NCBI RefSeq assembly: GCF_964355755.1
Contig: NC_092672.1
Location: forward strand, 18,055,237 to 18,119,236
From: Antedon mediterranea
Taxonomy: Eukaryota; Animalia; Echinodermata
Direction: 5' to 3'
Length of the DNA stretch: 64,000 nt
Positions 300 through 63,445 of the stretch are shown here, in pieces. Under the pieces are notes generated by a model that saw only the letters and a list, made by a program, of their open reading frames with translations, had not been told where the DNA came from and did not search any database. A program made the translations under genes and the position numbers. The stretch's first letter is position 1. Each line of letters begins with the position of its first letter.

Positions 300-1360
300 A
301 AAGTTAAAAGTGAATTTCTCGCCGTCGCCATTCCAGAATCGAATGCGTTCGATCTTCATGACAATGACAATGATTCTTTATTTCTTTATCGACCCTTTTT
401 CAGGGTATGAAAGAACATTCTTTCAATCTTATACAGAAACAAACTAAACACTTCCAGACATAAATATTTGGTCTTAAACATAATTGATGATATATCGAAA
501 AGCAACATCTAACTAAAACAAATACAAAATATTATGAATAAATTTAGCTAAGTTTGATATTTTTTGGGGGAGATCTGGTATTAGAAACGACAGAAACAGA
601 CACGGTGGTGGTGTTCTGATAGCATGCAAAAATTCCATAGATGTAATACCTGTGGACATTGACACAAATATTGAGATTCAACTGGCTGAAATCCGAAACT
701 CGAAACATCCGAATAAAATGTATAAGTGGAAAAAATACAGAAAATTTAGTAACGCATTGCGTGAAACTACGAGAAAGTCTCATTATGATTACGGTACCTC
801 CATAATCTTAGTTTAGGCTGTAAATTTAATCCTAAACGATTTTGGTCATATGTTAAGAAAAAACGAAAATGTGCAACAGAAAGAAAGTATATTTACACGG
901 CAATATCATAGATTCAGATTTAAATGCTACTAAAGCATTTTCGATATATTCTCAGTCTAATTTTACTGAAGATAATGATGATTTCAATGTAAGAAACGAA
1001 ACATCTTATTGTAATCACAGTGAAATTGTCTTACCTTTAACTAGTATTTTCATCAATAGGGATCCAATGTTCCGTGCCCTGTTATCTTTAGATACTAATA
1101 AATCCCCTGGACCCGATGGGATTACCCCTATGATGTTGAGTATGGCTGCACCTGTTGTATCCACAATTTTGCTTAAGATTTTTCAAATGTCCCTTGACCA
1201 AGGCATTGTGGTGAAGGAATGGAAATTGGCCAATGTTGTGCCAATTTTTGTTGGTAAAGTTCTAGAACGTATTGTGGCTGATAATTTTTTATTTCATCTT
1301 CAATGTAATGCGTTTGTTAGTCCTGTACAGCACGGGTTCTATCCTGGAAGATCTTGTGTT
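300..1360 (+). mobile_element. Degenerate CR1/L2-type LINE ORF2, 5' part (endonuclease remnant and RT N-terminus)
   Basis: RNDRNRHGGGVLIA at ~580-625; KSPGPDGI, WKLANVVPIF and QHGFYPGRSC in ORF 869-1390; 5' limit approximate. Confidence 0.85.
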
Positions 1361-2520
1361 AGTAGTATAGTTCCCCGTTCAGTCCAATGAATAATTCATA
1401 AATTAATTAATGAATATTAATATATTAATTATGAGTGTACTATTTATGAATAATTAATTAGGGGGTAGTTTTATGAATATTTAATAATTAAAATGGTATT
1501 ATTTTTTAATAAATGAATAAATTAATTTGTTTAGCGATCTCAGTCCAATGAAGAAGTAATAAGATGTTTTAATATTCATGAATATTAATATATTTTTATT
1601 AATATGAGGGGTGTTTTAATGAATAATTAGTAAATGAGTGATAGTTTTACGTATAATTTTTAAACGTAATACATGTATTACATGATGTTTAAATAAATAT
1701 TTACATTTAAATATTAAAGACAATGTGCTTACCTTCATTGAGAAGTCTGATGTACAGTTTAATGAATAAAATCCACAAGTTTAATCAGCTTTGATTACTG
1801 TTTTTTATGTTTGTATAAGGAATCATAACATCAATTCGCTGTCTTTCCATGGAATTAGTTTACATGTGAGGCGTGGACAGGTCATTTTTTGTAATTCTGT
1901 GATTTTAGCGGGTATGTGACGTCATCCGGCAATGAACCAATAAGATTCCTTATAAGCATAATGCTAATGAAATTAGAATTCGTTGTCCTTGTTGAGATAT
2001 TCAAAGATATTAAAAGTTATTTAATTATTTTATTAGTTTTTTATCCTTTTGTTTTTTCGTTTAGTTAAATAACCGCATTATTTTTTAAGGGTATTCCTTC
2101 AATATATAAAGATGGTAATAAATAAATAAATAAATAAAAATTAAAAATAATGTGCTTACCTTCATTGAGAAGTCTGATATTATAGTATATTTTAATGAAT
2201 AAAATCTACAAGTTTAATCAGCTTTGATTACTGCTTTTTTTATATGTTTGTATAAGAACAAAATCATAACATCAATCCGCTGTCTATTTTTTCAAATCCT
2301 GTGATTTTAGAGGGTATGTGACGTCATCAGGCAATGAACCAATAAGATTCCTTATAAACATAGTGCTAATGAATTAATCTACCAATCATAATTCGTTGTT
2401 TTTGTAAGCGTAGCGATCTCAGTCCAATGAATAAGTAATGAGATGTTTTAATATTCGATCGTGAATATTAATATATTTTTATTAATATGAGAGTGTTTTA
2501 ACGAATACTTAGTAATTGCG
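1361..2520. repeat. Left terminal region with internal direct duplications (probable original TIR)
   Basis: AT-rich ATGAATA-rich end; ~1533-1640 repeated at ~2411-2520; ~1722-1990 repeated at ~2149-2400; inner limit of the original TIR cannot be fixed. Confidence 0.6.
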
Positions 2521-2704
2521 TTGGTATTTATTCTATGAATTATTGAATTAAGTATGATATATGTAAATTGTTTTATTTTTAACACGGTACCTGATTTACT
2601 ATATATATATACAGATTGTTAATTTGAAAACAGTACAGTTTTCCTGCTTTAGATTTTTAACATTTAGTCATCTGTTCTTTATCCTGCTGTTATTATCTAT
2701 CAGG

Positions 2705-3397
2705 ATGAATTCTACTCAAAATCAATCCGGTAGTAAGAGAGTTTTTTCTTCTTCAAAAGGACAGAGTCCTGTATCTAATCGAGTAAAGATACACAAAGTT
2801 TCACATCAACACGGCACAGCAGTACCTTCAAATTGTATGACGTGTTTAATGGCGATTCAACCTCCACCTCCAATGAACGTTGATTTCAATAATGTATCTA
2901 ATACTGAAGAAGACGAACATTATAGATCGAGAATAATTTCTGAAGAGGAGAGGATTGTATACGACGACACGTCATCGGTAGTTGACTACCACCTATTTCT
3001 GGCAAGAAAATCCGATGTAGAAGATGAGGTAGAAGATGAGGTGTTTGCAGAAGAGTACCTGAACCCTGTGCTGGAGGCGGAGATTAAGAAAGAAACTACC
3101 GAACTTGAGTACAAAGAAATAATGAGAACAATTGAGAAGGTTTTCATAGAAGAATTTATGTTCATTCTGAAGGACATGGTTGAACGTTATAACTTTCACG
3201 GCTCAAGATATGAACAACTCTTAACATTTTTTCGACCAATTCTGGCATTGAAACTTGTGGACAATAGCGCTACCCATTTTGAATGGGCGCTAAACTACTT
3301 TCATTTACGTTGTATCAATGTTGATGCGTTCGATAAAGCCATAAAGTTGATTACAAATGATTCAGAGCTTTTTAATAAGATTCTTTACCAATTGTAA
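2705..3397 (+). CDS. Orphan Polinton cargo protein, ~230 aa (acidic middle, helical C-terminus), left copy
   Basis: Open frame from first ATG 2705 (the track starts at TTG 2624); TATA-like run at ~2599-2611; duplicated in the right arm with 2 aa changes; no family recognised. Confidence 0.6.
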   Translation: MNSTQNQSGSKRVFSSSKGQSPVSNRVKIHKVSHQHGTAVPSNCMTCLMAIQPPPPMNVDFNNVSNTEEDEHYRSRIISEEERIVYDDTSSVVDYHLFLARKSDVEDEVEDEVFAEEYLNPVLEAEIKKETTELEYKEIMRTIEKVFIEEFMFILKDMVERYNFHGSRYEQLLTFFRPILALKLVDNSATHFEWALNYFHLRCINVDAFDKAIKLITNDSELFNKILYQL

Positions 3398-3652
3398 TTT
3401 GTACAAATTTAAAATAATATCTTAACACTTTTTTAATTAATGTTACATAATTTTATAATTCTTATTTCTTTTCGGTAAATTTATTATTATTATGGTTATA
3501 ATTTATATTGAAATAGAATGCGTGTTAAAATAAAGGTTGTGTTTTTTTCTTTTAAAAGCAACAACAACAAAAATGAAATTTGATCTTTGCGTGTTATTTA
3601 AGTATTTGATTTATTTTTTTAATTTTCATTTGGGTGAATGAGGGTAATGAAT

Positions 3653-3876
3653 ATGGATGAGTACTTAAGAAAAGTATATTAAGATCCTAAGCATCCTGAT
3701 AGTTTTGGTGGTGTGGACCGACTTTATCAAAATGTAAAAGACGATTTAAATATTACCAAGAGACAAGTTCAAGACTGACTGAACAAGCAATACATTACAC
3801 ACATCCATACAACGTAAATTCAAACAAAACTGGGTACTTGTAAGTGCTATTGATGAACAATAGGGAATGGATTTGG
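3653..3876 (+). pseudogene. Polinton integrase N-terminal remnant, left copy
   Basis: MDEYLRKVY*DPKHPDSFGGVDRLY...ITKRQVQD*LNKQ then RKFKQNWVLVSAIDEQ*GMDL, resembling the Polinton integrase YYDP..SFGG / WL..Q / IDEQWQADL region; contains stops. Confidence 0.8.
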
Positions 3877-4060
3877 AAAAATAACGTGTATAAAATTTGA
3901 TTCAGACAAACTGTTTGCAAAATCAAAGGTTTGACTCTAGATTTCCAAAAATCAAAGGAAGTCAATTTTGAAATAGTTGGTAGCATGGTACGAGGAATCG
4001 GACTGGAAAAAATAACAACAACTAATCCTAACAAAATAACCCGTAAACCAAAATCTCACT
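3877..4060 (+). pseudogene. Protein-primed family B DNA polymerase C-terminal remnant, left copy
   Basis: KNNVYKI*FRQTVCKIKGLTLDFQKSKEVNFEIVGSMV...NPNKITR resembles the Polinton pPolB KNY..CKxKGITL..INF..NP.KI.R tail. Confidence 0.7.
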
Positions 4061-5151
4061 TAATATTTATTTTGTATTATAAATTTGTAAAAGTAGTTAC
4101 CCTATTTTAATTCATGGTAAATTTATTTTTCGAATTAATTTAATTTGTTTTATTTTCTGTTGAATTTTTATTATTATTATGTTTGTAAAGTGTATTGCAA
4201 TAGATTTGTTTAATAAAATAAATTAATTATGTTTTGACTTAATTTATGTCAGTGTAAATTTGTAAAAGTAGTTTTCCTATTTTAATTCATGATAAGTTTA
4301 TTTCTTGACTTTACTTAATTTTTTTCTTTTCTGTTGAAGTAGAATGTGTATTGAAATACATTTTGTTTTTAACATCAACAACAAAAAATGAAATTTTATC
4401 TTTGCGTGTTGTTTAATTCGTGTATGATGTTTTTCTAATTTATTTAAAAAAAAAAAAAAAAAAGAAAACAAGTTTTTGAATTTGTTAAATGTAATTGCAA
4501 ACATACAAAATAAATGATTGCGATTAAAAATTATATTTTGTAAAGTGTATTACAATAGAATGTGTATTGAAATACATTTTGTTTTTAACGTCAACAACAA
4601 AAATGAAATTTGATCTTTGCGTGTTGTTTAACTCGTGTATGAAGTTTTTGAATTTGTTAAATGTAATTGCAAACATACATATTAAATGATTGTGATTAAA
4701 AATATTCTGTTTACTTTTTATTTTTTATTTTAAACAGTAGTATTTTTAACAGTAGTTATATTTTATATATAATAAGTAATATTACAAAAATAAACATACA
4801 AAATGTATAAAGTATAGACTTATTAAATTTAAATACAATTTCTTTTTTTCAAAATGAATTTCATTTTATACGTGTTTTCAATTTTAAATCTTTTAAGAAA
4901 GACACAATACGTACTGATATAAAAACGCACACAAAAGGAAACAAATTTGAGACGCACGGTTTGTAACGACACTTTCAATAAGAAGGCATATTATAAATGT
5001 ATTTTTACAAAATTTATAAAGTAAATGTTTATTATTGAGAAATATACATTTTAGATAAATGATAACACATCTAAAAGTAATTAGAGAGATCAATACAATA
5101 TGGTGTTCATAATAATTTGTTTTGATGACTAGACGAAACATCTGAAGACAT

Positions 5152-5716
5152 TCAACGAAAAACAAGCGTTAACACCATACCAGTCACTAAAAATGCCACT
5201 GCTTTGAAAAAAACATCTCCCTTCCTACACAGAGACAAATTCTGAACGAAAATAATAAATAAAAATAATTAGTAAACAAAACACGCGCATTATAAATAAA
5301 ATGAATAATTTAAGAATATTTGTTAAACTACCCACGAACAAAAAACGAAACATACTAACCGACTCATCGTCATTACGAAGTTCAAATAACGAAAACTTTT
5401 CCTTGAAAAATCCACAGGAGACACGTTTTACATTTTCTAACTGCAATTCAGTGTCACATTGTGTCGCAACACATGTACATACAACGAGTCCTGTCACAAG
5501 TCTGCCGACGTTTATTTTTCTATCGCTCATCATTTGTTCTAATACATAATACAGCGCTTCCAAAGAAATATCTTTACACAATTCTAACACATTAAAATTG
5601 TTTTCCAACTCTTTACAAGCACGAATAGTACTCTGGAGGATGGGTGAATCCAAAACAACTAACCCCGTCAATTTATATTCAATGTATGCTAAAACTACTT
5701 CCTCTAAATCAACCAT
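5152..5716 (-). CDS. Bcl-2-like protein, spliced (exons 5716-5360 and 5241-5152), 148 aa, left copy
   Basis: Mirror of 7140-7704; BH4-like EEVVLAYIEYKL, BH3-like IRACKELE, BH1-like EQMMSDRKINVGRLVT, C-terminal TM in exon 2. Confidence 0.7.
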
Positions 5717-6251
5717 AACGCTCGACAAAACAAATGATAATGGATGTAATTACCAAGAAAGTTACAACTTAAAACCTTTATTTTTGTTTTTAAAAGAAGT
5801 TGTAACATAGAAACTAATTTTGTCCGGAAATGTGTTTTTATTATTTATGTGATTTATTTGTGTTTAGAAAGTTACAACATTAACATTTAATTTGGTAAAA
5901 AAATGTGAATAACCCATTGTTCCGACAGAAGCTAATGATATTTACAAAGGATGACACACTTTGAATAGAATAAATACCGTATAACATAATTAAATTTTGT
6001 CAAGATAGTTGTCAAAAATAAATAAAATATATTATACTGAATTTACTTTGTACATTTATTTAATTTAGGCCGTAATTAGGTTTATTGTTCATTTATGATT
6101 GTGAAAAAAAAAAAAAATACATACTAATAAAACAGCATAGGCCTATAAAAAAAGTAAAAAAAAAAATAATGATTCAGTGTTATAATTTTATTTACCTGTC
6201 ATTATGTTAATAAAACATATTTAAATTTAATTTATGTCATGTTAGATATAT

Positions 6252-6466
6252 TTTCAAGGACATTTGTTACATACAAATAATTTTGTAAAGAAATTTGTTA
6301 CATAAGATAAATTTGTTAAGAAGTTTGTTTCATAAAAATATTTGTGAAGATAAATTTGTTACATAAAAATAATTTTGTAAAGAAATTTGTTACAAAAATT
6401 TATTTTTTACAAGAAGTTTGTAACAGAAAATTATTTTGCAAAGAATTAGTTGCATCAATTGATTTT
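6252..6466. repeat. Non-palindromic central spacer made of degenerate TTTGTTACATAAAAATAATTTTGTAAAGAAA-like direct repeats
   Basis: Arm complementarity ends at 6251/6467; repeated TTTGTTAC/TTTGTAA units. Confidence 0.7.
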
Positions 6467-7139
6467 ATATATCTAACATGAAATAAATTAAATTTAAATA
6501 TGTTTTATTAACATAATGACAGGTAAATAAAATTATAACACTGAATCATTATTTTTTTTTTTACTTTTTTTATAGGCCTATGCTGTTTTATTAGTATGTA
6601 TTTTTTTTTTTTCACAATCATAAATGAACAATAAACCTAATTACGGCCTAAATTAAATAAATGTACAAAGTAAATTCAGTATAATATATTTTATTTATTT
6701 TTGACAACTATCTATCAAAATTTAATTATGTTATACGGTATTTATTCTATTCAAAGTGTGTCATCCTTTGTAAATGTCATTAGCTTCTGTCGGAACAATG
6801 GGTTTCTTTTCTTTGATCATGTAGATTTCCAATTTCAATCCATTTCTATATGTCTAATCTGCAATCATTAATTTCCGTTCGCTCTTTTTTTGTTTATAAA
6901 ATCTCTCACTATACTAAGGATTAAAAATTACAATCGGCTCCGTATATTCACATTTTTTTACCAAATTAAATGTTAATGTTGTAACTTTCTAAACACAAAT
7001 AAATCACATAAATAATAAAAACACATTTCCTGACAAAATTAGTTTCTATGTTACAACTTCTTTTAAAAACAAAAATAAAGGTTTTAAGTTGTAACTTTCT
7101 TGGTAATTACATCCATTATCATTTGTTTTGTCGAGCGTT

Positions 7140-7704
7140 ATGGTTGATTTAGAGGAAGTAGTTTTAGCATACATTGAATATAAATTGACGGGGTTAGTTG
7201 TTTTGGATTCACCCATCCTCCAGAGTACTATTCGTGCTTGTAAAGAGTTGGAAAACAATTTTAATGTGTTAGAATTGTGTAAAGATATTTCTTTGGAAGC
7301 GCTGTATTATGTATTAGAACAAATGATGAGCGATAGAAAAATAAACGTCGGCAGACTTGTGACAGGACTCGTTGTATGTACATGTGTTGCGACACAATGT
7401 GACACTGAATTGCAGTTAGAAAATGTAAAACGTGTCTCCTGTGGATTTTTCAAGGAAAAGTTTTCGTTATTTGAACTTCGTAATGACGATGAGTCGGTTA
7501 GTATGTTTCGTTTTTTGTTCGTGGGTAGTTTAACAAATATTCTTAAATTATTCATTTTATTTATAATGCGCGTGTTTTGTTTACTAATTATTTTTATTTA
7601 TTATTTTCGTTCAGAATTTGTCTCTGTGTAGGAAGGGAGATGTTTTTTTCAAAGCAGTGGCATTTTTAGTGACTGGTATGGTGTTAACGCTTGTTTTTCG
7701 TTGA
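7140..7704 (+). CDS. Bcl-2-like protein, spliced (exons 7140-7496 and 7615-7704), 148 aa, right copy
   Basis: ATG 7140; BH4/BH3/BH1-like motifs; donor GTTAGT 7497, branch-like TACTAAT 7582, acceptor TTCAG 7614; exon 2 reads NLSLCRKGDVFFKAVAFLVTGMVLTLVFR* (tail anchor). Confidence 0.7.
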
Positions 7705-8795
7705 ATGTCTTCAGATGTTTCGTCTAGTCATCAAAACAAATTATTATGAACACCATATTGTATTGATCTCTCTAATTACTTTTAGATGTGTTATCATTTA
7801 TCTAAAATGTATATTTCTCAATAATAAACATTTACTTTATAAATTTTGTAAAAATACATTTATAATATGCCTTCTTATTGAAAGTGTCGTTACAAACCGT
7901 GCGTCTCAAATTTGTTTCCTTTTGTGTGCGTTTTTATATCAGTACGTATTGTGTCTTTCTTAAAAGATTTAAAATTGAAAACACGTATAAAATGAAATTC
8001 ATTTTGAAAAAAAGAAATTGTATTTAAATTTAATAAGTCTATACTTTATACATTTTGTATGTTTATTTTTGTAATATTACTTATTATATATAAAATATAA
8101 CTACTGTTAAAAATACTACTGTTTAAAATAAAAAATAAAAAGTAAACAGAATATTTTTAATCACAATCATTTAATATGTATGTTTGCAATTACATTTAAC
8201 AAATTCAAAAACTTCATACACGAGTTAAACAACACGCAAAGATCAAATTTCATTTTTGTTGTTGACGTTAAAAACAAAATGTATTTCAATACACATTCTA
8301 TTGTAATACACTTTACAAAATATAATTTTTAATCGCAATCATTTATTTTGTATGTTTGCAATTACATTTAACAAATTCAAAAACTTGTTTTCTTTTTTTT
8401 TTTTTTTTTTAAATAAATTAGAAAAACATCATACACGAATTAAACAACACGCAAAGATAAAATTTCATTTTTTGTTGTTGATGTTAAAAACAAAATGTAT
8501 TTCAATACACATTCTACTTCAACAGAAAAGAAAAAAATTAAGTAAAGTCAAGAAATAAACTTATCATGAATTAAAATAGGAAAACTACTTTTACAAATTT
8601 ACACTGACATAAATTAAGTCAAAACATAATTAATTTATTTTATTAAACAAATCTATTGCAATACACTTTACAAACATAATAATAATAAAAATTCAACAGA
8701 AAATAAAACAAATTAAATTAATTCGAAAAATAAATTTACCATGAATTAAAATAGGGTAACTACTTTTACAAATTTATAATACAAAATAAATATTA

Positions 8796-9203
8796 AGTGA
8801 GATTTTGGTTTACGGGTTATTTTGTTAGGATTAGTTGTTGTTATTTTTTCCAGTCCGATTCCTCGTACCATGCTACCAACTATTTCAAAATTGACTTCCT
8901 TTGATTTTTGGAAATCTAGAGTCAAACCTTTGATTTTGCAAACAGTTTGTCTGAATCAAATTTTATACACGTTATTTTTCCAAATCCATTCCCCATTGTT
9001 CATCAATAGCACTTACAAGTACCCAGTTTTGTTTGAATTTACGTTGAATGGATGTGTGTAATGTATTGCTTGTTCAGTCAGTCTTGAACTTGTCTCTTGG
9101 TAATATTTAAATCGTCTTTTACATTTTGATAAAGTCGGTCCACACCACCAAAACTATCAGGATGCTTAGGATCTTAATATACTTTTCTTAAGTACTCATC
9201 CAT
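8796..9203 (-). pseudogene. Fused integrase N-terminal / pPolB C-terminal remnant, right copy
   Basis: Mirror of 3653-4060; keeps IDEQWGMDL (TGG) where the left copy has TAG. Confidence 0.75.
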
Positions 9204-9458
9204 ATTCATTACCCTCATTCACCCAAATGAAAATTAAAAAAATAAATCAAATACTTAAATAACACGCAAAGATCAAATTTCATTTTTGTTGTTGTTGCTT
9301 TTAAAAGAAAAAAACACAACCTTTATTTTAACACACATTCTATTTCAATATAATTTATAACCATAATAATAATAAATTTACCGAAAAGAAATAAGAATTA
9401 TAACATTATGTAACATTAATTAAAAAAGTGTTAAGATATTATTTTAAATTTGTACAAA

Positions 9459-10151
9459 TTACAATTGGTAAAGAATCTTATTAAAAAGCTCTGAATCATT
9501 TGTAATCAACTTTATGGCTTTATCGAACGCATCAACATTGATACAACGTAAATGAAAGTAGTTTAGCGCCCATTCAAAATGGGTAGCGCTATTGTCCACA
9601 AGTTTCAATGCCAGAATTGGTCGAAAAAATGTTAAGAGTTGTTCATATCTTGAGCCGTGAAAGTTATAACGTTCAACCATGTCCTTCAGAATGAATATAA
9701 ATTCTTCTATGAAAACCTTCTCAATTGTTCTCATTATTTCTTTGTACTCAAGTTCGGTAGTTTCTTTCTTAATCTCCGCCTCCAGCACAGGGTTCAGGTA
9801 CTCTTCTGCAAACACCTCATCTTCTACCTCATCTTCTACATCGGATTTTCTTGTCAGAAATAGGTGGTAGTCAACTACCGATGACGTGTCGTCGTATACA
9901 ATCCTCTCCTCTTCAGAAATTATTCTCGATCTATAATGTTCGTCTTCTTCAGTATTAGATACATTATTGAAATCAACGTTCATTGGAGGTGGAGGTTGAA
10001 TCGCCATTAAACACGTCATACAATTTGAAGGTACTGCTGTGCCGTGTTGATGTGAAACTTTGTGTATCTTTACTCGATTAGATACAGGGCTCTGTCCTTT
10101 TGAAGAAGAAAAAACTCTCTTACTACCGGATTGATTTTGAGTAGAATTCAT
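9459..10151 (-). CDS. Orphan Polinton cargo protein, ~230 aa, right copy
   Basis: Mirror of 2705-3397 with A>T and M>I differences. Confidence 0.6.
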   Translation of the reverse strand: MNSTQNQSGSKRVFSSSKGQSPVSNRVKIHKVSHQHGTAVPSNCMTCLMAIQPPPPMNVDFNNVSNTEEDEHYRSRIISEEERIVYDDTSSVVDYHLFLTRKSDVEDEVEDEVFAEEYLNPVLEAEIKKETTELEYKEIMRTIEKVFIEEFIFILKDMVERYNFHGSRYEQLLTFFRPILALKLVDNSATHFEWALNYFHLRCINVDAFDKAIKLITNDSELFNKILYQL

Positions 10152-11496
10152 CCTGATAGATAATAACAGCAGGATAAAGAACAGATGACTAAATGTTAAA
10201 AATCTAAAGCAGGAAAACTGTACTGTTTTCAAATTAACAATCTGTATATATATATAGTAAATCAGGTACCGTGTTAAAAATAAAACAATTTACATATATC
10301 ATACTTAATTAAATAATTCATAGAATAAATACCAACGCAATTACTAAGTATTCGTTAAAACACTCTCATATTAATAAAAATATATTAATATTCACGATCG
10401 AATATTAAAACATCTCATTACTTATTCATTGGACTGAGATCGCTACGCTTACAAAAACAACGAATTATGATTGGTAGATTAATTCATTAGCGCTATGTTT
10501 ATAAGGAATCTTATTGGTTCATTGCCTGATGACGTCACATACCCTCTAAAATCACAGGATTTGAAAAAAATAGACAGCGGATTGATGTTATGATTTTGTT
10601 CTTATACAAACATATAAAAAAAGCAGTAATCAAAGCTGATTAAACTTGTAGATTTTATTCATTAAAATATACTATAATATCAGACTTCTCAATGAAGGTA
10701 AGCACATTATTTTTAATTTTTATTTATTTATTTATTTATTACCATCTTTATATATTGAAGGAATACCCTTAAAAAATAATGCGGTTATTTAACTAAACGA
10801 AAAAACAAAAGGATAAAAAACTAATAAAATAATTAAATAACTTTTAATATCTTTGAATATCTCAACAAGGACAACGAATTCTAATTTCATTAGCATTATG
10901 CTTATAAGGAATCTTATTGGTTCATTGCCGGATGACGTCACATACCCGCTAAAATCACAGAATTACAAAAAATGACCTGTCCACGCCTCACATGTAAACT
11001 AATTCCATGGAAAGACAGCGAATTGATGTTATGATTCCTTATACAAACATAAAAAACAGTAATCAAAGCTGATTAAACTTGTGGATTTTATTCATTAAAC
11101 TGTACATCAGACTTCTCAATGAAGGTAAGCACATTGTCTTTAATATTTAAATGTAAATATTTATTTAAACATCATGTAATACATGTATTACGTTTAAAAA
11201 TTATACGTAAAACTATCACTCATTTACTAATTATTCATTAAAACACCCCTCATATTAATAAAAATATATTAATATTCATGAATATTAAAACATCTTATTA
11301 CTTCTTCATTGGACTGAGATCGCTAAACAAATTAATTTATTCATTTATTAAAAAATAATACCATTTTAATTATTAAATATTCATAAAACTACCCCCTAAT
11401 TAATTATTCATAAATAGTACACTCATAATTAATATATTAATATTCATTAATTAATTTATGAATTATTCATTGGACTGAACGGGGAACTATACTACT

Positions 11497-12670
11497 TGTG
11501 TTACACAAGCTTCATCCATATACCACGAATGGTCCAAAATATTAGATGGTACGAACCCACCAGTCGTCGATGCTATATTCCTTGATTGGGAAAAAGCATT
11601 TGACCGTGTGAGTCACCCTAAACTATTACGTAAGCTCCACAATTTTGGTCTATGTGGTCCAATTTTGAAATGGATGGGCTCCTTTCTTACTGATCATTGC
11701 CAACAGATTGTCCTAAATGGACTGATATCTGACCGTACGCCTGTTGTTTCAGGTGTACCTCAATGGTCGGTACTTGGCCCATTACTTTTCAACTCGTTCG
11801 TTTTTTACCTCCCTATGTCGATCAACTCTCAAAATATGACAATATGCCGACGATACGGTGGTGTTTAGGTCAATTAGATGTGAATATGATGCGATATTAC
11901 TTCAAAAAGATCTAGATAACATCGATGAATAACATGATGAGACTTAATGCTAAAAAATGCAAAGTTCTCCATATTACTCGCAAACGTAATCCCATTCATG
12001 CTCGTTATCATATTCACACTAATGACCTTCAGGCAGTTACCTCCTACAAATATCTTGGTATTCACTTTGAAAGCAATCTCTCTTGTCAACGCATGTGTCC
12101 GCAATTACCACAAAATATCTCCAAATTGTCGGATTCATAAAGCGTTTAGTGATATTTAACGACCCTGTAGTTTTGATGAGGCTTTTTAACGGTTTATGTA
12201 GGCCCATACTTGAGTATGCTGCCCCTGTTTGGGTGCCTCATCAAAAACAACATATTACTAGCATAAATAAACCTCTTCGAAGGATCACAAAATTGTGTGC
12301 TAAGGGCGATTACGAGCAACGGCTTGAACATGGACCAGAGAGTGTGTTTTCTCAGTATACTTTTTATTATGAAATGTTTGTATGGTCGAATTGATCTTAA
12401 TATTCATGATTTTAATCCAAGATATTCCGAATCAGTTATTTTTAAACACAAATATGCCAGAACCAATTCTTTTAAATATTCATTGTACACTACTTTTCCC
12501 CGTGTATGGCAAGAGATTCCTAATTATATTAGAGAACATTCTTTATTTAGTTTTAACACATTTGTGACAGCTCTCCGGTCTTATGTCAGGCAACTTTAAA
12601 CTTTTTATTTTTTTATCTTTAAACTATCATTTTTATCTGTACATAATATTTATATATATATATATATATT
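11497..12670 (+). mobile_element. CR1/L2-type LINE ORF2, 3' part (RT core and C-terminus, frameshifted)
   Basis: DAIFLDWEKAFDRVSH, SGVPQWSVLGPLLF, YADD, LNAKKCKV, YKYLGI, RPILEYAAPVW. Confidence 0.88.
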
Positions 12671-12753
12671 TTAGATTCAATTTTAATGATTGTTCAATTT
12701 GATGCCTCGCAATTTTTAAATTTTTATATCTTTGTATTTTGAATGTTCAAGTG

Positions 12754-14471
12754 CGGTTCTAGGACACCTACCCCCTAGACAGTTACCCCCCGGATGTTTA
12801 CCACCCGGACAACTACCCCCTTAGGACAACTACCCCCCGGACAACTACCCCCCGGACAACTACCCCCTTAGGACAACTACCCACTTAGGATAACAACCCC
12901 CCGGACAACTACCCCCCGGACAACCACCCCCTTAGGACAACTACCCCCTTAGGATAACTACCCCCCGGGTAACTACCCCCCCGGTCAACTACCCCCCGGT
13001 CAACTACCCCCGGTCAACTACCCCCCCCCCCCCCCCCCCATCCAAAAGTAGACAAATATATAGGACCGGTTTCTGTAAAAATGAAATCATCTGTTTTTAA
13101 CGGGTGTTTCGAAACTAGAGACCCGAGACCAGAGACCTGACACGAGACCCAATACGAAAAGGGAGACCTATATTTGGGTCTCCCTTTTCGTATATTAGGG
13201 TCTCCCTTTTCGTCTAGTGTGGTCTCTCTTTTCGTATAGTGGGGTCTCCCTTTTCTTATAGTGGAGTCTCCCTTTTCTTATAGTGGGTCTCCCTTTTCGT
13301 ATATTTGGGTCTCCCATTTTGTATATTTGGGTCTCCCTTTCGTATAACTGGGTCTCCCTTTTCGTATATTTAGGTCTCCCTTTTCGTATATTAGGGTCTC
13401 CCTTTTCGTATAGTGGGGTCTCCCTTTTCGTATAGTAGGGTCTCCCTTTTCGTACGTGGGTCTCCCTTTTCGTATATTTAGGTCTCCCTTTTCGTATTGG
13501 GTCTCTGGTCTCTGGTCTCGGGTCTCTAGTTTCGAAACACCCGTTTTTAACCGATTATTCTGTTTAACAGCACGCTAGACCCTAGATGCGCTAGATTTAA
13601 AGTACCGTATTTAATGAAAAAACGGCCTGGGCTGTTTATTGTTTAGGTGGTTTTTAGGTGGACATTTATTGGAAGAAAGTTGTTTATTCAATGGGAGGGG
13701 GTATAATCTAATGGAAATAGACGCCGATTATTCCATATGATGTTTCATGGGAGTGACATGGTCACCGTTTATTTGAGGGGAATTTATTTAAAGATCGACG
13801 TTTATTCGGTGAGTGAACATTGAGGTCAAATATCAAAAGTGATATTATTCTTCAAGTGTACAAAAATACATATAATTATGACAAATTTGAGACAAAAATT
13901 AATTCTTTTAAGACCAGTAGTTATCGAAGCATTGTCCTGACGCAAAAATTATTATTATTAGCGAACCCAGTCTTTACAGTAAATACAGGGAGTACTATAT
14001 AATACGTTCGACTATCCTATTATCATGTGTGACAATCTTCAGTTTATACCAGGCTATATTTATGTTCAATCTTTTACTTTTGTTTACAATGGTGAATAGT
14101 AATTCGTCAAAGTAACGAATTAAAATATAGTTATTAATTCCTATTATACACTGTTGCAGAGTCAGGTTGTTGAATGGTCTGGGTGGTTAGGGTGTTCTAA
14201 AGGGATAGTTTTCTGGGTGGTAATTGTCCGGGGGGTAATTGTCCGGAGGGTAATTGTTCCTAGGGGGTAATTGTCCGGGGGGTAGTTGTCCAGGGGGTAG
14301 TTGTCCTAAGGGGGTTGTTGTCCTAAGGGGGTAGTTGTCCGGGGGGTATTTGTCCGGGGGGTAGTTTTCCTAAAGGGGTAGTTGTCCTAAGGGGGTAGTG
14401 GTCCAGGTGGTGGTTGTCCGGGGGGTAGTTGTCCGGGGGGTAAATGTCCAGGGGGTGAATATCCGGATACG
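12754..14471. mobile_element. Foldback-type non-autonomous DNA element with inverted arrays of GGACAACTACCCCC subterminal repeats
   Basis: C-rich array 12760-13040 mirrored by G-rich array 14200-14460; TSD not resolved. Confidence 0.65.
13102..13542. mobile_element. Mutator (MuDR)-type MITE nested in the foldback element
   Basis: TIR GGGTGTTTCGAAACTAGAGACCCGAGACC; 9-bp TSD GTTTTTAAC (13093-13101, 13543-13551); internal GGGTCTCCCTTTTCGTATA repeats. Confidence 0.8.
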
Positions 14472-14966
14472 AAAATTAATGACTGTTCGAATACTAAAAC
14501 ATCCTTAGAATATCTATAATTATCACACACTAAATTAGAAAAAACATTATGACGCCATTCCTGTTTTGAGATGTCACTCAATCGGAGATTACTCTTTTTT
14601 TTTTTTCTCTTTTGTGGCGCAAACACCACTTTTATTCACATTCATATTATCTCATATTACATAAAATCGTATTATTTAACTTGTAAATGTCGTTACAGTT
14701 CATAAGTAACATTTTTACATATATGAATTCTGTATTACTCCTTTTTTCATTAATTTTCGTATATTTTGTTATACACTTGACAGGATCATCATTGTCATCT
14801 ATCCCGTTTTAAAATAGTTCACACATTTTCATTTGTTTGTTTTCATTTTACAACCCGGATTATACAATATATTTATATACATGATAAAAAAAACAATAAT
14901 AACTCAGTACCACCAGTAACCCGTATTACTGTAATTCTTTTTCGGTTAATCGTATCAAATTAGAAA

Positions 14967-17900
14967 TTATATTATCATAATCTTATTTCTTAAAGCTACC
15001 CATTTTTCTATACTTGTTTCTTTATTGTTATATGTTTCACATTCAATGTTATATAACATATTGCTTTTAAATGAATTCCATAAAGATTTACCCACTGGCT
15101 TATTTAGTGCAGATAACATTTTTATTCTATAAATAGTAAATGCTGCAAAAGTGTAAATATAATCTATTAGCTTATCTCCCGTTCCTAGTATTAATTGTTT
15201 AAATGATATATTATTGTGATTTAAACTTACAAAGATACTAAGCATTTTCCTCCAATATTTCTGAATAAATCTACAACTAAAAAACAAATGATTTTCATTT
15301 TCAATTTCTCCACATTTGTCACACGTTTGTGTTTCCTTAACTTTCCACTGATACAGCCGTTTGTTGGTAGGCAGTATTCTATGTAACATCTTATAATTGA
15401 ATTGTGCTAGTTTCTTATCTTTCATTTTACATACTTTCCGTAACCAAGAAGTTTTCCAATCAATGTTGTTATCATTGAAGTACTCTTCCCATTTTAGTTG
15501 TGACATTGGAATAATGAAATATTCTTTCACAAACCATGAGTATATTAGTTTGGTAGTATTAATCTCATACTTGGTCCCAACTAATTCATCATTATCATCA
15601 CAATTGAAAATATCTACCTCCTTAATAATACGTTTCCATTGAATTGGTATTGCCTTAATAATGCACAAATACTCATTTAACCAGTTTGTTTTACATTGTA
15701 GTTTCACCAGTATTTCGTTTGATGTTAAAAAAGTGTTCTTATTAACAATGTCTTTAATACTGATAATGCCACTGTCAATCCAATGCTTGTAGAAAAGCGA
15801 TTTTTTTTTTTAGTTTAACGTAGTGGTTTCCCCACAGTTGCTCATTCATTATATCGTTATAAGTTTCAGGGTTTTTTTTAGAGATTCTGTTATAATTTAT
15901 GTAGGCTTTTATCATATTTTTGTAAAACAGTGGAATTTTATCAGAATTAACATCAATAATGTTATAACATGACATATTAAGTAAAACATTAACATCACAT
16001 ATTTTTTTAATATAATACATTGGAATATTTTTCCATTTAGCACCATCATCATTCATAATTCTTTTTAACCAGCCACACATGAGTGCGTTAACATGAAGAG
16101 TAAAATCAGGCATTTTAATGCCTCCCATCTCAACATCACCAATTAGAGTTTTTCTTTTTATCTTTTCCCTTTTATTGTTCCAAATAAAATTATATATTAG
16201 ATTTGTAACTTGTGTATATACATATTTTGGAACATCAGTGATATTTGCAGCATATGTTAATTTAGATAGTGCAAGAATTTTCAGGATTATTATTCTACCA
16301 AAAATTGAGAGATTTCTAGCATTCCATTGTTTTAAAGTCTTTTCTAGCTCTATTAATTTAACATCCCAGTTTTTTCTGGTACATTCTTCTGTATTATATC
16401 CTACATATATGCCTAAAATTTTGATCGGGTGTTTTACCCAATTTAATTCTAAAGGTCTATCTATTCTGTTCTTCCATTTACCAATCCAAAAAGCATTGGT
16501 TTTTTTTTTTATTTAGTGTCATTCCAGATACTTCACAAAAACGTTCAATTACACTGACTGCTGACTTAATACTTTTGTCATTACCAACATACAAAACAGT
16601 ATCATCGGCTAATTGGCTTATTCTAGCTTCTATGTTATTTTCATTATTTGGAAGTTTAATACCCTTATAGTCATCTTTGTTTCTTATTCTAGATGCCATT
16701 ACTTCAACCACTAAAATGAATAACAGAGCAGATAGAAGACAACCTTGTCTAATACCTCTTTCCATTTTAAAATTGTTTGAAACCCAACCATTGTTAACTG
16801 TGACACATTCAACGTTATTGTATAATACTTTTACCCAGTTACAAAAGAACATTCCAAAGTTAAACTTTTCTAGAACATTGAACATAAAATCTCTACTAAT
16901 AGAGTCAAAAGCCTTCTTAAAATCTACGGTAATTATTGCCCCTTCGATATCATTACACTCTGTATAATAAAGCAGGTCTTCTATTAACCGAATGTTTTCA
17001 CCAGCGAAACGGCCTTTTATATAACCTTTTTGGTCTGAACTTACTATTGATTTAATAACCATTTTAAGTCTGTTACTTAATACATGTGCAAGAATTTTGT
17101 AATCGGTGTTTAAGAGGGTAATGGGACGCCAATTATTCAAATTTTCTCTTTCTCCATCCTTGAACAAAAGGGTGATTACACCTCGTTTTTGCGAAAAGGA
17201 TAATTCTTGAGAATTATAACTTTCATTTAACGCATCGCAAATTAAATGTTTAATATTATTCCAAAAGAACACATAAAATTCAACACTTAGACCATCCGAT
17301 CCAGGTGTTTTATTTTTTTCCATCATTGAAATGGCCTTTTTACATTCATCAATAGTGACGTAACCTTCACAATTTTCTTTTTCTATTTCTGAAAGCTTGT
17401 TTATAGTAGAATTACAAAGGTATTTATTAATTTTTCCAGGGTTTATAACATTTTTTGCGTATAAACCTTCGAAATGTTGTATTTGTTCCTTTAAGATATC
17501 AATTGGGCTCGTTGCTAAGCTCCCATCTTTAGTAATTAAACTTTTTATGTGTTTCTTTTTACTTTTGGATCTTTATAACCCAAGAAAGTATTTTGTATTC
17601 CGCTCGCCTTCCTCTATCCATTTTACTCTGGACCTAATTTGCGCGCCTTTTGCTTCTACATTATAAATGTTTTCAAGCTCTATTTTTTTGTTTTCAATTT
17701 TATTTTCAATGGTTATATCACAATTTTGAGTATTCATAATTGTTTCATTTAAGTTTTTTATTTGTTTTTGTAATTTTTCTTTCTTTTTATTCTGGTTTTT
17801 ATTTTTTTGTTTTCCGTATGCAATTGAAAATTCTTTTATTTTTGTTTTTACAAGCTCCCATAACAAACTTGCACTTACAGGTTCTCTATTATTTTTTAGT

Positions 17901-18730
17901 ATTGAAACATCAATTATTTTAATTACTAATTTTGTAAATGTTTCATCTTTCAGAAAGCTATTGTTGAACATCCATAAACCAGGACCGCGTATTTTTTCAT
18001 GCAAATCTATTTTAATTGATACCGCCTGGTGATCTGTGAGAATGGCTGGACGAATGTCACAGGCTAAAACATCTCCATTTGAAAAGAGATCTTCTGATAT
18101 TAACCAGTAATCCAGCCTACGGAAAATGTTGTTAAATCTCTTACGCCACGTAAATTGTCGCTTATTCATGTTTTTGGATCTCCAAATATCATTTAAATTT
18201 AAATTTTTCATTAGGTTTTTAATCGTAAAAACAGATTTATCAGACCTATTTGCGCTACCTTTTTGGTCAATGTCACTATTCATGATGCAATTCAGATCTC
18301 CACCTAGAATGATAGAATTACCCTTCCCTCCATCAAAGTCATTGTAACATTTGTGTATGGTCCTAAAGAATGCACTTCTATTTTTGCTTTCATTAGGAGC
18401 ATAAATATTTATAATGTCCAATTCCTTTTCATTTATCATTAAATTAAGAAATATATATCTTCCATCAATATCAGTTAACTTTTTAACAATTTTGCATTCA
18501 AGACCTTTTCGTAATAGTATCGACACTCCTCTACTATGTGAATTACCTATACTATGGATCGCTTCACCTTCCCAAACAAAGTTTGATTTATTAATAATCT
18601 CATTTGTTAGATGGGTTTCCTGAAGCAGACATATATCCGCTTTTTGATCTTTTACCCATTGGAATAGCTTATGTTGCTTATTTATATTTCTAGCTCCTCT
18701 AACGTTTAGTGTTATACAATGTAAATTCAT
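14967..18730 (-). pseudogene. Tx1/L1 ORF2 (APE endonuclease, RT, zf-RVT) with one in-frame stop and two homopolymer frameshifts
   Basis: TLNVRG, LQETH, GGDLN, RLDYWL, TDH; KTPGSDG, WRPITLLN, DFKKAFD, QLADD; CDKC...HLFFSC; TAA at 17573-17575; shifts at ~16505 and ~15805. Confidence 0.9.
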
Positions 18731-18795
18731 AAGATTAGAGTAAAGAGCTTCCTAGGGAAATTACAATATTTAGAATACATATTATTAAGATTAAA

Positions 18796-20121
18796 TTACT
18801 TGTTTTTGTTTCTCTTTCTTAAACTTCTTTTTTCAATACTCTTTGTTTTTTCTTCTGTCCTGCCTTCATTTCCGGACTGTTCCTTCAGATCTCTCGCTGC
18901 TTTCTTGTTTGTGCTAACACTTTTACTTTTTTGCATACTTTTTTCAAAGTAGTCAGTTACCTTCTTCTGTTCATGCTCCTCTCTTTCCCCAACTTCCTGC
19001 TCCTCTCTTTCTTCAGCTTTCTGGTACTTTCTTCCCGGTACTTCTTGTTCCTCTCCTTCTTCAACTTCCTCCTCCTCTCTTTCGTCCACTTCCTGCTCTT
19101 CTCTCTGCTCCTCTCTGTCATCATCTTTCTGCTCATTTTGGTTTGTGTGTTGTTCTATAGTGATCACACTTGTTTCTTTCTGCGCATTTTCATCATCTGA
19201 TGATTCACTACTTCCATCAATACTAAACACTTCATCATGTGTTTCTGTATCAGATTGTACCGTAGCTCTTTTCCCGTAGTGGTTATCGTTAGCATTACTA
19301 TTTTTTGGGTTTTCAAAGTTAAAAACCGATTCCCAAACTTTATTAATGTATGCACCAGGTGAACCAGATGATGATACATTATGCGCTTCAACATTACATC
19401 TGTCCCTAGTATGCCCTGGTAAATGACACTTGAAACAGATTATATCAGCTTTGCATTGAAAAGCTAAATGCCCAGTCTTTGTACATTTGTTGCATTTCAC
19501 TTCCTGACCGTCATGAAAAGCCCGTGCTCTAAAACCATTTATTATTATCTGTCTTGGTATAGGCGATTTTAGCTTTTCTACAACGACAGCTCTGTCACCG
19601 TTTAGCCAGCTGGTTAATTGGCCATTAACCCTTATTTTTAGCCTTGTAACATCTCCTATTGGTTTGCATCCTAGCGCTTTCAACTTGCTAGCAATCTCTA
19701 CGTCAGCAACCGATAATGGTATATCCTTTATGACTATTCTCGTTGTTTCCATGTTGTTGTATGCCAAATAAGGATTTTTATCATGAATTGTAATATTACA
19801 ATTCCTAATGTTTAGTCCATTCGTAATTAGTTTCACTCTATCATTTCTATTATTTAGATAAATTCGCCATAGGTTCCGTATTTTTTGAACACCTATTATA
19901 CTTTCTGCAGCAATTATTTTTAGTAGGGCTATACATAGGTCTTCATCTTTGAAAAAGCTTTTTCCTGTTGGTATTTGATCAGCCTTCAAAAAGATTGGCT
20001 TCACTACACTACGTTCTTTGTTTACTGTTTGCCCGTTCATCCTGCTGATTTCGTCACCGTCAGCCTGTGCAGCACTGTACATTCCTTTGTTAGTCCCGTT
20101 TCTATGGGTTTTTGACGCCAT
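18796..20121 (-). CDS. Tx1/L1 ORF1 gag-like protein with two CCHC zinc knuckles
   Basis: 441 aa; CNKCTKTGHLAFQC and CFKCHLPGHTRDRC; acidic C-terminus. Confidence 0.88.
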   Translation of the reverse strand: MASKTHRNGTNKGMYSAAQADGDEISRMNGQTVNKERSVVKPIFLKADQIPTGKSFFKDEDLCIALLKIIAAESIIGVQKIRNLWRIYLNNRNDRVKLITNGLNIRNCNITIHDKNPYLAYNNMETTRIVIKDIPLSVADVEIASKLKALGCKPIGDVTRLKIRVNGQLTSWLNGDRAVVVEKLKSPIPRQIIINGFRARAFHDGQEVKCNKCTKTGHLAFQCKADIICFKCHLPGHTRDRCNVEAHNVSSSGSPGAYINKVWESVFNFENPKNSNANDNHYGKRATVQSDTETHDEVFSIDGSSESSDDENAQKETSVITIEQHTNQNEQKDDDREEQREEQEVDEREEEEVEEGEEQEVPGRKYQKAEEREEQEVGEREEHEQKKVTDYFEKSMQKSKSVSTNKKAARDLKEQSGNEGRTEEKTKSIEKRSLRKRNKNK

Positions 20122-22649
20122 TGTTTGGCTTTCACCGGGCTTAGACGTGAACGATATACAAATTGTTTTTTCCTAGTATTTCTTTCAGGTAAAAACTTCC
20201 ACCTTAACAAAGACTTGGTTTAACTTGACTTATTCACTATATTATACTCACTTAGAAATCAATCGAGATTTAGAAAACGTCAAATTTTAACCGTATTTCA
20301 GGAGCTGTAATAAACTATACCTTGGTTAAGTAAAATCACAACGCCCGGAGATTACTCTTTGCTAACCATTTTTTATTAAAATTATCGAAATCATTTTTTT
20401 TTTGTCTTGTGTGGGGTTGTCCCACTTTTATTATAATTCTGTGTTTTATATGTATATATATATATATATATTATATATATAAAAACAAAGGTACATTTGT
20501 AACAATTAATTATTTGCATGAATATTTCTCTTTCTATTGTATATTACTACGATTTTTACAGTGTTAAAAGTAGTTAAATTGCAGGCATATTTACATAAAA
20601 AGATGATTGATTTCAATATAAAACCATATGCTTTCATTTACAATCTTAAAAAAGATGGTAATTAAAATATAAAGATAAAACATGGTAATAAAATTCTGTG
20701 AACTGTCATTGAAATCGTTCTTATAAAATCTTGTTCATGTTCGGGCAGAGAGGCTATAAACTCAGAGAAGGCGTATAAAATATCATCCCTTTTCACCCAG
20801 ACAAAAAGGATGAGATGAAAAAAGATGAATGCAAAAGTTTGAAAACTAGATAATAAGGATGATAGCATAGGATGATATTTAAATGAAAACCCTAAGCACT
20901 GTGCAAGTCCAAGATGCCAATTTGGCTCTGTGTGCATGTGAGACGCTTCATACCCGATGTCATCTTATTATAATACTACTTCAGTGTACAAAAAAAAACA
21001 ATATTGCATTTTAGAAAATATGAAAAAACACTTCATACAAATTATATTCATGCTATCAATTGTAGCAGAGTTTCTTTTTTTGCACCCCATTTACGTTGTG
21101 TCTTAATTAAGTTACACATAATATGTTCATTTTCTAATAGATTTTTAACTTCAGCAGTGAAAAGAATCCAGATCTTTTTTTTATCATCTTTATCATTTCT
21201 TCCAGCTTTGGATATTATGTGTACCTTGTATATACAGAATAAAAACAGAGAAATCAATTCATTTACAATATTGTTTTTTGTTCCTGTAACAATTTTAAAC
21301 TAAGTAATATTATCTTCAGCTGGAAAGCAAACAGCCAGCACATCTTTAAATTTGTGCCATGTCCATTGAATGGCATTGCATTCAAACAGCATGTGTTGTT
21401 CACTTTCTATCTGATTTATACAATTGTCACATAAATTGTTTTCTGCTAGATTCCATAGTTTTAATCTTTTTTTACACGGTAATATTCGATGTAGGAGTTT
21501 AAAGTTGAATTGAGCAACTTTACTATATGTTTCATCTTGTATACCTTATAATACCATACTTTATTCCAATCTATTTCTACGTTATTTAGCTCACATTCCT
21601 ATTTTTTTTTTGTGAACCTGGTTCACTGGAACAGTTGTTTATAAATATTTATAGTAGATAGATCCTTTAATGTTCGTATGCAACAATGAATCATTATTGC
21701 CTACATCTTGATTATTTGTATTGTCTTTTCTAATAATTTCTTTCCACTCATTTGGTATGGCATTCATAAGCTGTAAATATTCAATTAAATCATTATGTTT
21801 TTTATACAAATTTGAAATTATTTCCCCTGCAGTACATACTCTATCATTTATAAATATATCACCAATTGTTTTATAATCAGAATATAACCATGATTTGAAG
21901 TACAATGATTTATTGTTAGATAATATAAACTTATTTTCCCATAATTGCTGATTTTTTATTTCTATTAAAGTTGTTGGTTTTGGATACACAATATTATTAA
22001 ATTTTACTACAGCATTAATCATGTTCTTGTAGAATGTAGGCATATCTCTCAAGTTAGCATGATCATGTACATTAAGTTTAGTACTTTTTATTGTATATTC
22101 AATTGGGTGAAGGAAATATTTTGGTATGCATTTCCATTTACCTGGATCTGGACCTAACAGTCGCTTGACCCAATTTAGTTTAAGTTATTCAACCACAGAG
22201 CTAACATCTGGCATGTTTAAACCACCTTCTTTAATATTTTTAATTAAGGTTGTTCTCTTTATCTTTTCTCTTCTATTTGTTTAACTATATCTTTTGGAAC
22301 ATCAATTATACTTGCGTTATATATAAACTTACACAAAGCAAGTGTTTTAATAATAGTGATTTTACCAAAAAATGTAAGATTCCTTCTTTTCCATAAGTTT
22401 AATACATTTTCTAGATTGGTAATATTTTTGTCCCAGTTTCTCTTCTCACATAAATGCTTATTGTAACCTACATGGATTCCTAAAAAAGGGTTCACTAGTC
22501 CATGTAATATCTAATGGTCTTGAAACACTATTTTCGTTTTCACCAATCCACATACCATTTGTCTTTTTTCTATTTAATTTTAACCCTGAAACACTACAAA
22601 ATGACTCAATCTCATTCAAGAAATATTTTAAACTACCTTCATCATGTGA

Positions 22650-23440
22650 AACAAGGCCAACAGCCATTAAGTCGCGTGCTACAATGCATAGTGATACCGG
22701 ACCGACAGACCGACAGACAGACCGACAGACCGACAGACAGAGAGACCGACCGACCGACATAGTGAACTATACTGACCGAAATTACTGAACATGTTTAAAA
22801 ATGTTGAAATGTTTAAAAACATTTATTTTTTTAAAATTTACACGTGCGTAGCCTGTCACTTTCGACGTGCTCGTATAACGTAATTTCGAGTTGAAAAGTA
22901 AGTCAAGAAAACAGAAATCGGGCAAAAAGAGTGCGTGATAACATTTAACGCGCAGTGCGCGCGCAAAAATATGCGCACTCATGGCAATTTTGTAAACGCT
23001 TAAAATTGCCTGAAATGTACTCTTATTTCATCGAAAATAAATTTTGAAAATGTTAAGCGCGCGTACGCATGCGTTACATGCGCTACGCACGTAATTGTAT
23101 TGCCATATGATGATTTATGCCCTGAAATTTATGAGTACCAAATTTTATTTAATTGTGATTCATGGTTGTGAAGATATGATTACAAATCGTGCGTAGACCG
23201 CGTAATTTTTTATTGCGCACCGTGAAAACATAACCACATTGATTCCTGGCCATAAGGAATATACTGTGAAAAATTGACCTAGCTAGATTAAACTGATATC
23301 AAGATAAGGTCAGAAAGCGATAAAACGCATAGTGATACCGGACCGACAGACAGACAGACAGACCGACAGACCGACAGACAGACAGACAGACCGACCGACC
23401 GACATAGTGAACTATAGAGTCGCTTCCACGCGACTAAAAA
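22650..23440 (-). mobile_element. Non-autonomous Helentron-like (DINE-1/HINE-type) element, copy 1
   Basis: 5' TTTTTAGTCGCGTG, sub-TIR GTCGCGTG/CACGCGAC, (CTGT/CGGT)n microsatellites, 3' hairpin GGCTGTTGGCC then TTGTT; inserted in a T-run. Confidence 0.72.

Positions 23441-35975: not shown

Positions 35976-63445
<27,470 letters not shown>

Follow-up and report, generated by a model that had tools for sequence, protein, structure and literature searches.

How does a mobile DNA element come to consist almost wholly of two copies of one sequence facing each other, and how can such an element spread? This question is raised by a locus of the echinoderm Antedon mediterranea (NCBI RefSeq assembly GCF_964355755.1, contig NC_092672.1), for which we analysed a window of 64,000 nucleotides from position 18,055,237 to 18,119,236 of the forward strand, numbered here from its first letter. 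At 1361-11496 the window carries a 10,136-bp element of which inverted arms make up about 96%, the arms being 4.9 kb each around a loop of 215 bp. An earlier note, made from the letters alone, had read this element as a fully palindromic derivative of a Polinton, or Maverick, that was copied back on itself during replication, left without capsid, ATPase or protease genes and mobilised in trans. Our analysis shows that the element is of Polinton ancestry and that it belongs to a multi-copy family present in at least three organisms; its sequence makes a copy-back origin plausible, with a history that may differ from the one first proposed.

The 5' end of the element reads AGTAGT and its 3' end ACTACT, which is the (AGT)2//(ACT)2 motif of Polinton ends (PMC8097293, cited here, like the other published sources below, for the part of its text at hand). 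The hexamer TGTGTT stands at either side as a target-site duplication (TSD), and the probability of meeting this exact 6-mer at a given place by chance is 3.4e-4. At both flanks the TSD translates as Cys-Val in the frame of a long interspersed nuclear element (LINE), within GFYPGRSCV on the left and CVTQASSIYHEW on the right. The right flank matches Pfam RVT_1. The flanks contain no duplication or inversion, and across the insertion the LINE remains collinear. The element is a genuine, young insertion, integrated as a single unit into an old LINE. Integration in one piece, with one exact 6-bp TSD and the LINE in frame at both flanks, had been proposed in the earlier note, and it is borne out together with the end motif, the TSD, the continuity of the LINE frame once the element is removed, and the coordinates and sizes given for the arms (about 4.9 kb) and the spacer (215 bp).

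The Polinton ancestry is seen in the end motif, in the 6-bp TSD and in the remains of two Polinton genes in each arm. One is the broken 5' part of an integrase gene, covering residues 1-77 of P0003, a protein with an rve domain, at 73% identity over residues 1-52 and 64% over residues 50-77; the Pfam rve core of that protein begins at residue 71. The other is the 3' part of a gene for protein-primed DNA polymerase B (pPolB), which is 41-44% identical to pPolB C-termini (best E 5.7e-7, the best E in 10 shuffles being 0.007) and matches residues 849-895 of a 970-aa pPolB frame. These two stubs adjoin within 30 bp. When the 349 open reading frames (ORFs) of 63 related metagenome loci were compared with the left half of the element, all 38 matches fell within the two stubs; among these ORFs the ATPase was named by Pfam, and the capsid and protease ORFs were unnamed. 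The element thus has the 6-bp TSD and the end motif of an autonomous Polinton and lacks an intact integrase and pPolB, a packaging ATPase, protease and capsid, and a long unique core enclosed by terminal inverted repeats (TIRs) of about 0.1-1.5 kb. What it does have, Polinton ends and ancestry without working enzymes together with amplification after these enzymes were lost, marks a non-autonomous Polinton derivative. The claims of Polinton ancestry and of lost autonomy, with no core gene intact, therefore stand, and integrase and pPolB are both traceable, but only as short broken stubs in each arm.

In the metagenome contigs the relatives of P0003 lie within ordinary Polintons. The contig L005, with an ORF assigned to DNA_pol_B_2, holds an apparently complete Polinton of 15.5 kb (384-15912), with pPolB, an A32-type ATPase, an rve-chromo integrase and TIRs of 668 bp. 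At the DNA level the 63 loci did not resemble the arm, and neither of the two open ORFs of the element described below had a match in them; in loci of at least 7 kb, inverted-repeat matches reached about 1 kb at most. Viral contigs yielded no locus for P0003 and no match for the terminal 29-mer.

Between the outer arms (1361-5910 and 6946-11496) there are 12 differences in 4,551 bp, or 0.26% (95% interval 0.14-0.46%), and their outermost 932 bp are a perfect inverted match. Four small events separate the inner arms (5911-6251 and 6467-6804). The description of the element as fully palindromic holds for two inverted arms of about 4.9 kb but not for the whole, since 141 bp at 6805-6945 stand in the right arm alone. 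The repeats of the loop are quasi-palindromic and able to pair. We considered whether the inner 894 bp could be a separate miniature inverted-repeat transposable element resembling piggyBac, and rejected this because TTAA and other direct repeats are absent and because the relatives join this part to the 141-bp segment. A 12-bp motif of the terminus recurs in the sub-terminal blocks, with six matches in the window against 0.48 expected and none in 100 shuffles; these repeats are candidate origin repeats.

Relatives of the element were sought in public sequencing data, where 15 runs from four organisms and one unlabelled study contain part of its left half, the best runs with 0.58-0.61 of the sampled words. 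The shares in X6, X8, X9 and X11-X15 are small, X2 and X4 come from the sample of X1, and none of the 15 is listed as RNA, though X5 may be. Five runs, all as contigs, were aligned: X3, X1, X5 and X7 on 700-6470, and X1, X5, X7 and X10 on 6250-7120. The depth of a contig is a rough guide and gives no copy number, rare forms drop out of contigs, and these runs probably do not include the source individual. Coverage extends to nearly all bins in organisms A and B and to 23 of the 30 bins of the centre in organism C. Single contigs of X1 run along the arm at depths of 214-253, compared with 5.7-12.3 for rare variants, a rough indication that the arm is present in tens of copies in this run. One of them (3827-4057, depth 221.6, with one other letter) bridges the deletion between the integrase and polymerase stubs, so in organism A the gutted form is the dominant one and the one that multiplied. 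Because this dominant form is already deleted, amplification with a helper is likely, and the earlier suggestion that the element was multiplied after its loss of autonomy is upheld.

The same data bear on the history of the two arms. Loose ends at 5911 (X3 and X1) and 5902 (X7) reveal that the relatives carry the 141-bp segment, and thus that the left arm lost it. Among the 40 variant rows listed, of 233, 27 lie within the element and 17 of these are fixed in X1 against the left arm; both arms share the letter of the window at 14 of the 17 listed sites, and at the other 3 it is the right arm that has the letter of X1, which the left arm lacks. This indicates that the two arms are each other's nearest relatives, recently copied from each other and slightly diverged since. 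The family itself is not uniform. At position 6717 some contigs of organisms B and C (X7 and X10) leave the inner arm for other sequence, at a depth of 20.4 in X10 compared with 10.7 for the layout of the window, so that the relatives have at least two inner layouts. In organism A the sub-terminal block at 1461-2836 has between a third and half of the depth of the inner arm, and in organism B it shows several skips and reiterations; it is mainly in this block that subfamilies differ.

In each arm two ORFs have remained open. For ORF A, the sole long ORF otherwise unaccounted for in the element, we found no match among 117 candidates when it was queried from its second residue, and no usable match in the Atlas; its only Pfam match had E=0.058, and its structure model reached a pLDDT (predicted local distance difference test) of 41. 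The second ORF, of 163 aa, is predicted to encode a Bcl-2-like protein, because four individually weak lines agree. Pfam matches it to Bcl-2 at E=2.5e-4 and 22 bits, below the cut-off of 31.4; its best Atlas matches are Bcl-2 clusters (0.92, with 212 shared features), with recognition below threshold; its sole match among PDB sequences is fowlpox FPV039 at E=0.38; and seven of its top 10 Foldseek matches belong to the Bcl-2 family, none of them at E<=0.001, from a model with a pLDDT of 50. The C-terminus, with a hydropathy of 2.78 over 19 residues from residue 135 and a confident helix in the model, qualifies as a putative membrane anchor. None of 47 candidates matched this ORF at E<=0.01, none of 1.84 billion representatives at E<=0.001, and none of 425 metagenome candidates. 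Three disruptions common to both arms are found in about 125 codons of the stubs, compared with none in the 393 codons of the two ORFs, a contrast with P ~8e-5 if all are of equal age. Selection on ORF A and on the Bcl-2-like ORF is likely, because the stubs are disrupted and the ORFs are intact. Thus the element is not an empty defective genome, since each arm keeps two open accessory ORFs, one of them Bcl-2-like.

How, then, did the palindrome arise? The explanation that we favour, and to which we give about an even chance, is that the palindrome is family-wide and came from an ancestral fold-back in protein-primed replication, that it was copied by a helper and integrated, and that its centre was trimmed in the present copy. 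In such a history a large deletion between the 5' end of the integrase gene and the 3' end of the pPolB gene, which is itself observed, would have left a molecule with one terminus, ORF A, the two stubs, the Bcl-2-like gene and the AT-rich repeats. A displaced single strand of this molecule may then have folded back near its far end and extended itself, which would give the same terminus at both ends; snap-back over the whole length would restore a duplex origin, so that the palindrome would perpetuate itself. The deleted form would have multiplied in trans, with its two accessory ORFs staying open and with the polymerase and integrase presumably supplied by a helper Polinton; the amplification is what the contigs of organism A display. 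The present copy would have integrated as one unit into the old LINE, as its TSD records, and finally its centre may have been trimmed at a microhomology of 2 nt while the left arm lost its 141 bp. In favour of this history stand the exact TSD within the LINE frame, the adjoining stubs with the contig that bridges them, the recent copying between the arms and the uneven spread of disruptions. Moreover, the full pPolB-ATPase-integrase element of L005 also has this end motif and is bounded by a TSD of 6 bp, and panhandles of displaced strands that restore terminal homology are a standing model for protein-primed replicons (PMC11886824).

That the centre of the present copy is the copy-back point itself, as the earlier proposal taken literally implies, is rather doubtful. 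At position 6496, contigs of the left type account for the entire depth of X1, X7 and X10, and in X1, X5 and X7 the contigs at the end of the loop cease matching at 6468 (among the rows listed; there are 204 more). The loop stands at about the depth of the arm and not at half that value, 219.5 compared with 227-234 in X1 and 3,735-5,390 compared with 4,132 in X7, and the right centre junction is found in none of the four runs aligned to the centre (X1, X5, X7 and X10). In the relatives, then, the loop is an ordinary stretch of the arm, which continues beyond it, and the centre of the present copy is therefore private, with 2 nt in common across the junction; it may be the secondary trimming of a longer palindrome. 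The joint of 6252 with 6467 on the opposite strand, which occurs in all four runs, was considered as proof of a palindrome and rejected, since it is merely the left arm running into the loop.

Several of these observations weigh against a palindrome shared by the whole family. Besides the right centre junction, the 141-bp deletion of the left arm is also absent from all four runs aligned to the centre, so that no independent record shows a palindrome; no helper was found, the loop at arm depth suits a linear, non-palindromic family equally well, and panhandles are still without direct evidence (PMC11886824). Indeed, a private junction with a microhomology of 2 nt only, relatives that continue past 6468, a loop at about arm depth and loop repeats able to pair are all in keeping with a linear family with short TIRs, in which a fold-back at 6468 onto 6251 was confined to the present lineage and gave a one-off palindrome that was then integrated. 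If short TIRs enclosed unique DNA, however, the terminus should stand at twice the inner depth, and it does so in neither X3 nor X1. In X3 the depth is 7,888 at 1420 compared with 6,823-7,924 in the inner arm (at sites with one or two contigs), a comparison of summed depths and therefore weak. In X1 the ratio is about 1.3-1.5 (326.9 compared with 214-253), a value that also tells against the family-wide palindrome, and the sub-terminal part at 1461-2830 is lower still (about 100 compared with 214-253). X7, with 720 at the terminus and more than 12,000 in the inner arm, makes the depth argument inconsistent across runs and is a further point against the family-wide palindrome. On balance, we regard a fold-back confined to the present lineage as rather doubtful.

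A gradual growth of the TIRs is an unlikely source of the palindrome. Here gene-bearing TIRs would have grown beyond 5 kb on either side of a unique core, which the present copy then lost, with no need for a single fold-back, and an internal deletion of this kind would yield an identical junction. TIRs of about 2 kb with duplicated capsid and protease genes are described for butterfly polintons (10.1101/2025.02.07.637071). The arm, however, contains fused remains of both integrase and pPolB, and so resembles a whole gutted genome that was doubled and not an enlarged end. Still less probable is a palindrome formed in place, in which a normal derivative was inserted and repair or gene conversion later copied its left part over its right; this would account for a private centre absent from other samples, but it requires a 5-kb conversion that ended exactly at the terminus, next to flanks that are neither duplicated nor inverted and a LINE that is collinear. 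The absence of the private centre from all four runs is not evidence of an artefact, because rare forms disappear from contigs and the runs probably lack the source individual. An assembly or library artefact, such as a fold-back read or a mis-join, is very improbable: no record spans the element, both private junctions are missing from the four runs and even the best runs contain only a part of the sampled words, but with a fold-back read the arms would be identical and the left flank mirrored, where we find 12 differences, 141 bp in one arm only, a right arm that matches the relatives at 3 listed sites where the left does not, and, after an exact TSD, the rest of the LINE in frame.

Table 1. 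Positions of the element, its parts and its target site in the window
Feature	Positions	Strand	Remarks
Left target-site duplication TGTGTT	1355..1360	+	In frame within the LINE reverse-transcriptase ORF
Left outer arm	1361..5910	+	Starts with (AGT)2
Sub-terminal reiterated blocks	1361..2582	+	12-bp terminus motif three times per arm (1380, 1541, 2420)
ORF A, 230 aa, open	2705..3397	+	Mirror 9459-10151 (-), 2 amino-acid differences
Broken integrase 5' stub, ~77 codons	3653..3875	+	Stops, frameshift, catalytic core absent; mirror 8981-9203 (-)
pPolB 3' stub, ~48 codons	3904..4047	+	Mirror 8809-8952 (-)
AT-rich internally duplicated blocks	4029..4794		Related to 3342-3625
Bcl-2-like ORF (predicted), 163 aa, open, hydrophobic C-terminal helix	5225..5716	-	Identical protein in mirror copy
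Left inner arm	5911..6251	+	Four small events against right inner arm
Loop, 215 bp	6252..6466		31-bp quasi-palindromic tandem repeat, ~6 copies; arm-like in relatives
Right inner arm	6467..6804	-	Private junction, 2 nt (6467-6468) in common with the relatives' continuation
141-bp right-arm-only segment	6805..6945		Missing from left arm; present in relatives
Right outer arm	6946..11496	-	Terminates in (ACT)2
Mirror copy of Bcl-2-like ORF	7140..7631	+	Same protein as at 5225..5716
Right target-site duplication TGTGTT	11497..11502	+	Remainder of the LINE reverse-transcriptase frame continues after it

The rest of the window is rich in repeats. Nested inverted elements with tandem repeats of 15-16 bp and 22 bp in their arms lie at 12760-14466, and a second, largely complete non-LTR retrotransposon (LTR, long terminal repeat) occupies 14970-20172 on the minus strand, with a zinc-knuckle ORF1, an endonuclease, a reverse transcriptase and zf-RVT, broken into several frames. 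At 22650-24786 lies an inverted-repeat element whose arms, each about 800 bp long and 94% identical to each other, flank some 540 bp that by eye resemble a LINE fragment. A near-perfect tandem array at 40268-42679 has some 44 units of 55 bp, and further arrays have units of 53 bp (29564-29990 and 46684-47836) or 50 bp (63644-64000); that such arrays are cleanly resolved suggests a long-read assembly. The only piece of a host gene recognised in the window is an exon-like frame at 45696-46064 on the plus strand, which matches the FtsJ methyltransferase family.

What may such an element mean for Polinton biology? In the papers considered here Polintons are characterised mainly in silico. From strand-displacement replication with fold-back one expects a derivative that is mobile and palindromic almost throughout; such a derivative would therefore be a sequence record of the intermediate, and the panhandle model becomes testable by the comparison of copies. 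Surveys that demand both integrase and pPolB (PMC8097293, 10.1101/2023.08.22.554363) would overlook families of this kind. That a Bcl-2-like gene is kept after the loss of all replication genes suggests a contribution of the satellite during helper-driven replication. We speculate, quite tentatively, that the family represents a widespread and undescribed class in animals, germline-fixed copy-back satellites of Polintons, in which a gutted genome of half length is doubled into a self-complementary palindrome. Such a palindrome would have a snap-back origin at the ready and a length nearer to the packaging size of the helper capsid, it would outnumber its helper, and its Bcl-2-like gene, under selection, would protect the cell that copies it. 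Palindromes of ten kilobases are also potential fragile sites and potential sources of hairpin RNA.

Copy-back and snap-back defective viral genomes, self-complementary adeno-associated virus and the symmetric defective genomes of adenovirus are transient products of infection. Such copy-back genomes have in common with the element a single kind of terminus at both ends, internal loss and dependence on a helper, the last being likely here; the element, in contrast, is a chromosomal insertion, and its multi-copy family occurs in several species. Long inverted arms with internal tandem repeats are also known from foldback transposons such as FB and Galileo. The element differs from these in its Polinton-type ends, its TSD length and its gene remnants, and no cut-and-paste transposase is seen in it. 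Closest are the Polintons or Mavericks themselves (PMC8097293, 10.1101/2023.08.22.554363), with which it shares the end motif, the 6-bp TSD, the integrase and pPolB ancestry and accessory genes near the ends. Their TIRs are short: those of vertebrates measure 46-1,447 bp (PMC8097293), the general range is 100-1,500 bp (10.1101/2023.08.22.554363), and they enclose 13-25 kb with core genes, whereas the element consists of inverted arms nearly throughout and has no core gene intact. In the openly readable literature we found no printed description of a fully palindromic Polinton, subscription papers, Kapitonov and Jurka 2006, Repbase and Dfam lying outside this scope, and none occurs in the portions at hand of PMC6431247, PMC3014272, 10.1101/2024.01.15.575659 and PMC1864894; it is possible that such a family has been deposited and not discussed. 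Butterfly polintons (10.1101/2025.02.07.637071) include mobile forms without polB and gene-bearing TIRs of about 2 kb, and so resemble the element in mobility after the loss of polB and in genes duplicated inside inverted repeats. They keep a unique, gene-bearing middle between these TIRs, whereas the element has 4.9-kb arms around 215 bp, and its integrase is dead as well. Adintoviruses carry Bcl2 homologues or IAP as accessory genes (PMC8502044), so a Bcl-2-like gene in a Polinton-type element has a precedent there. In adintoviruses, however, Bcl2 stands beside a full set of viral genes, and here the Bcl-2-like gene is one of just two open genes, present twice. Set among these systems, the element is not an autonomous Polinton but a non-autonomous Polinton variant with a cargo that looks selected.

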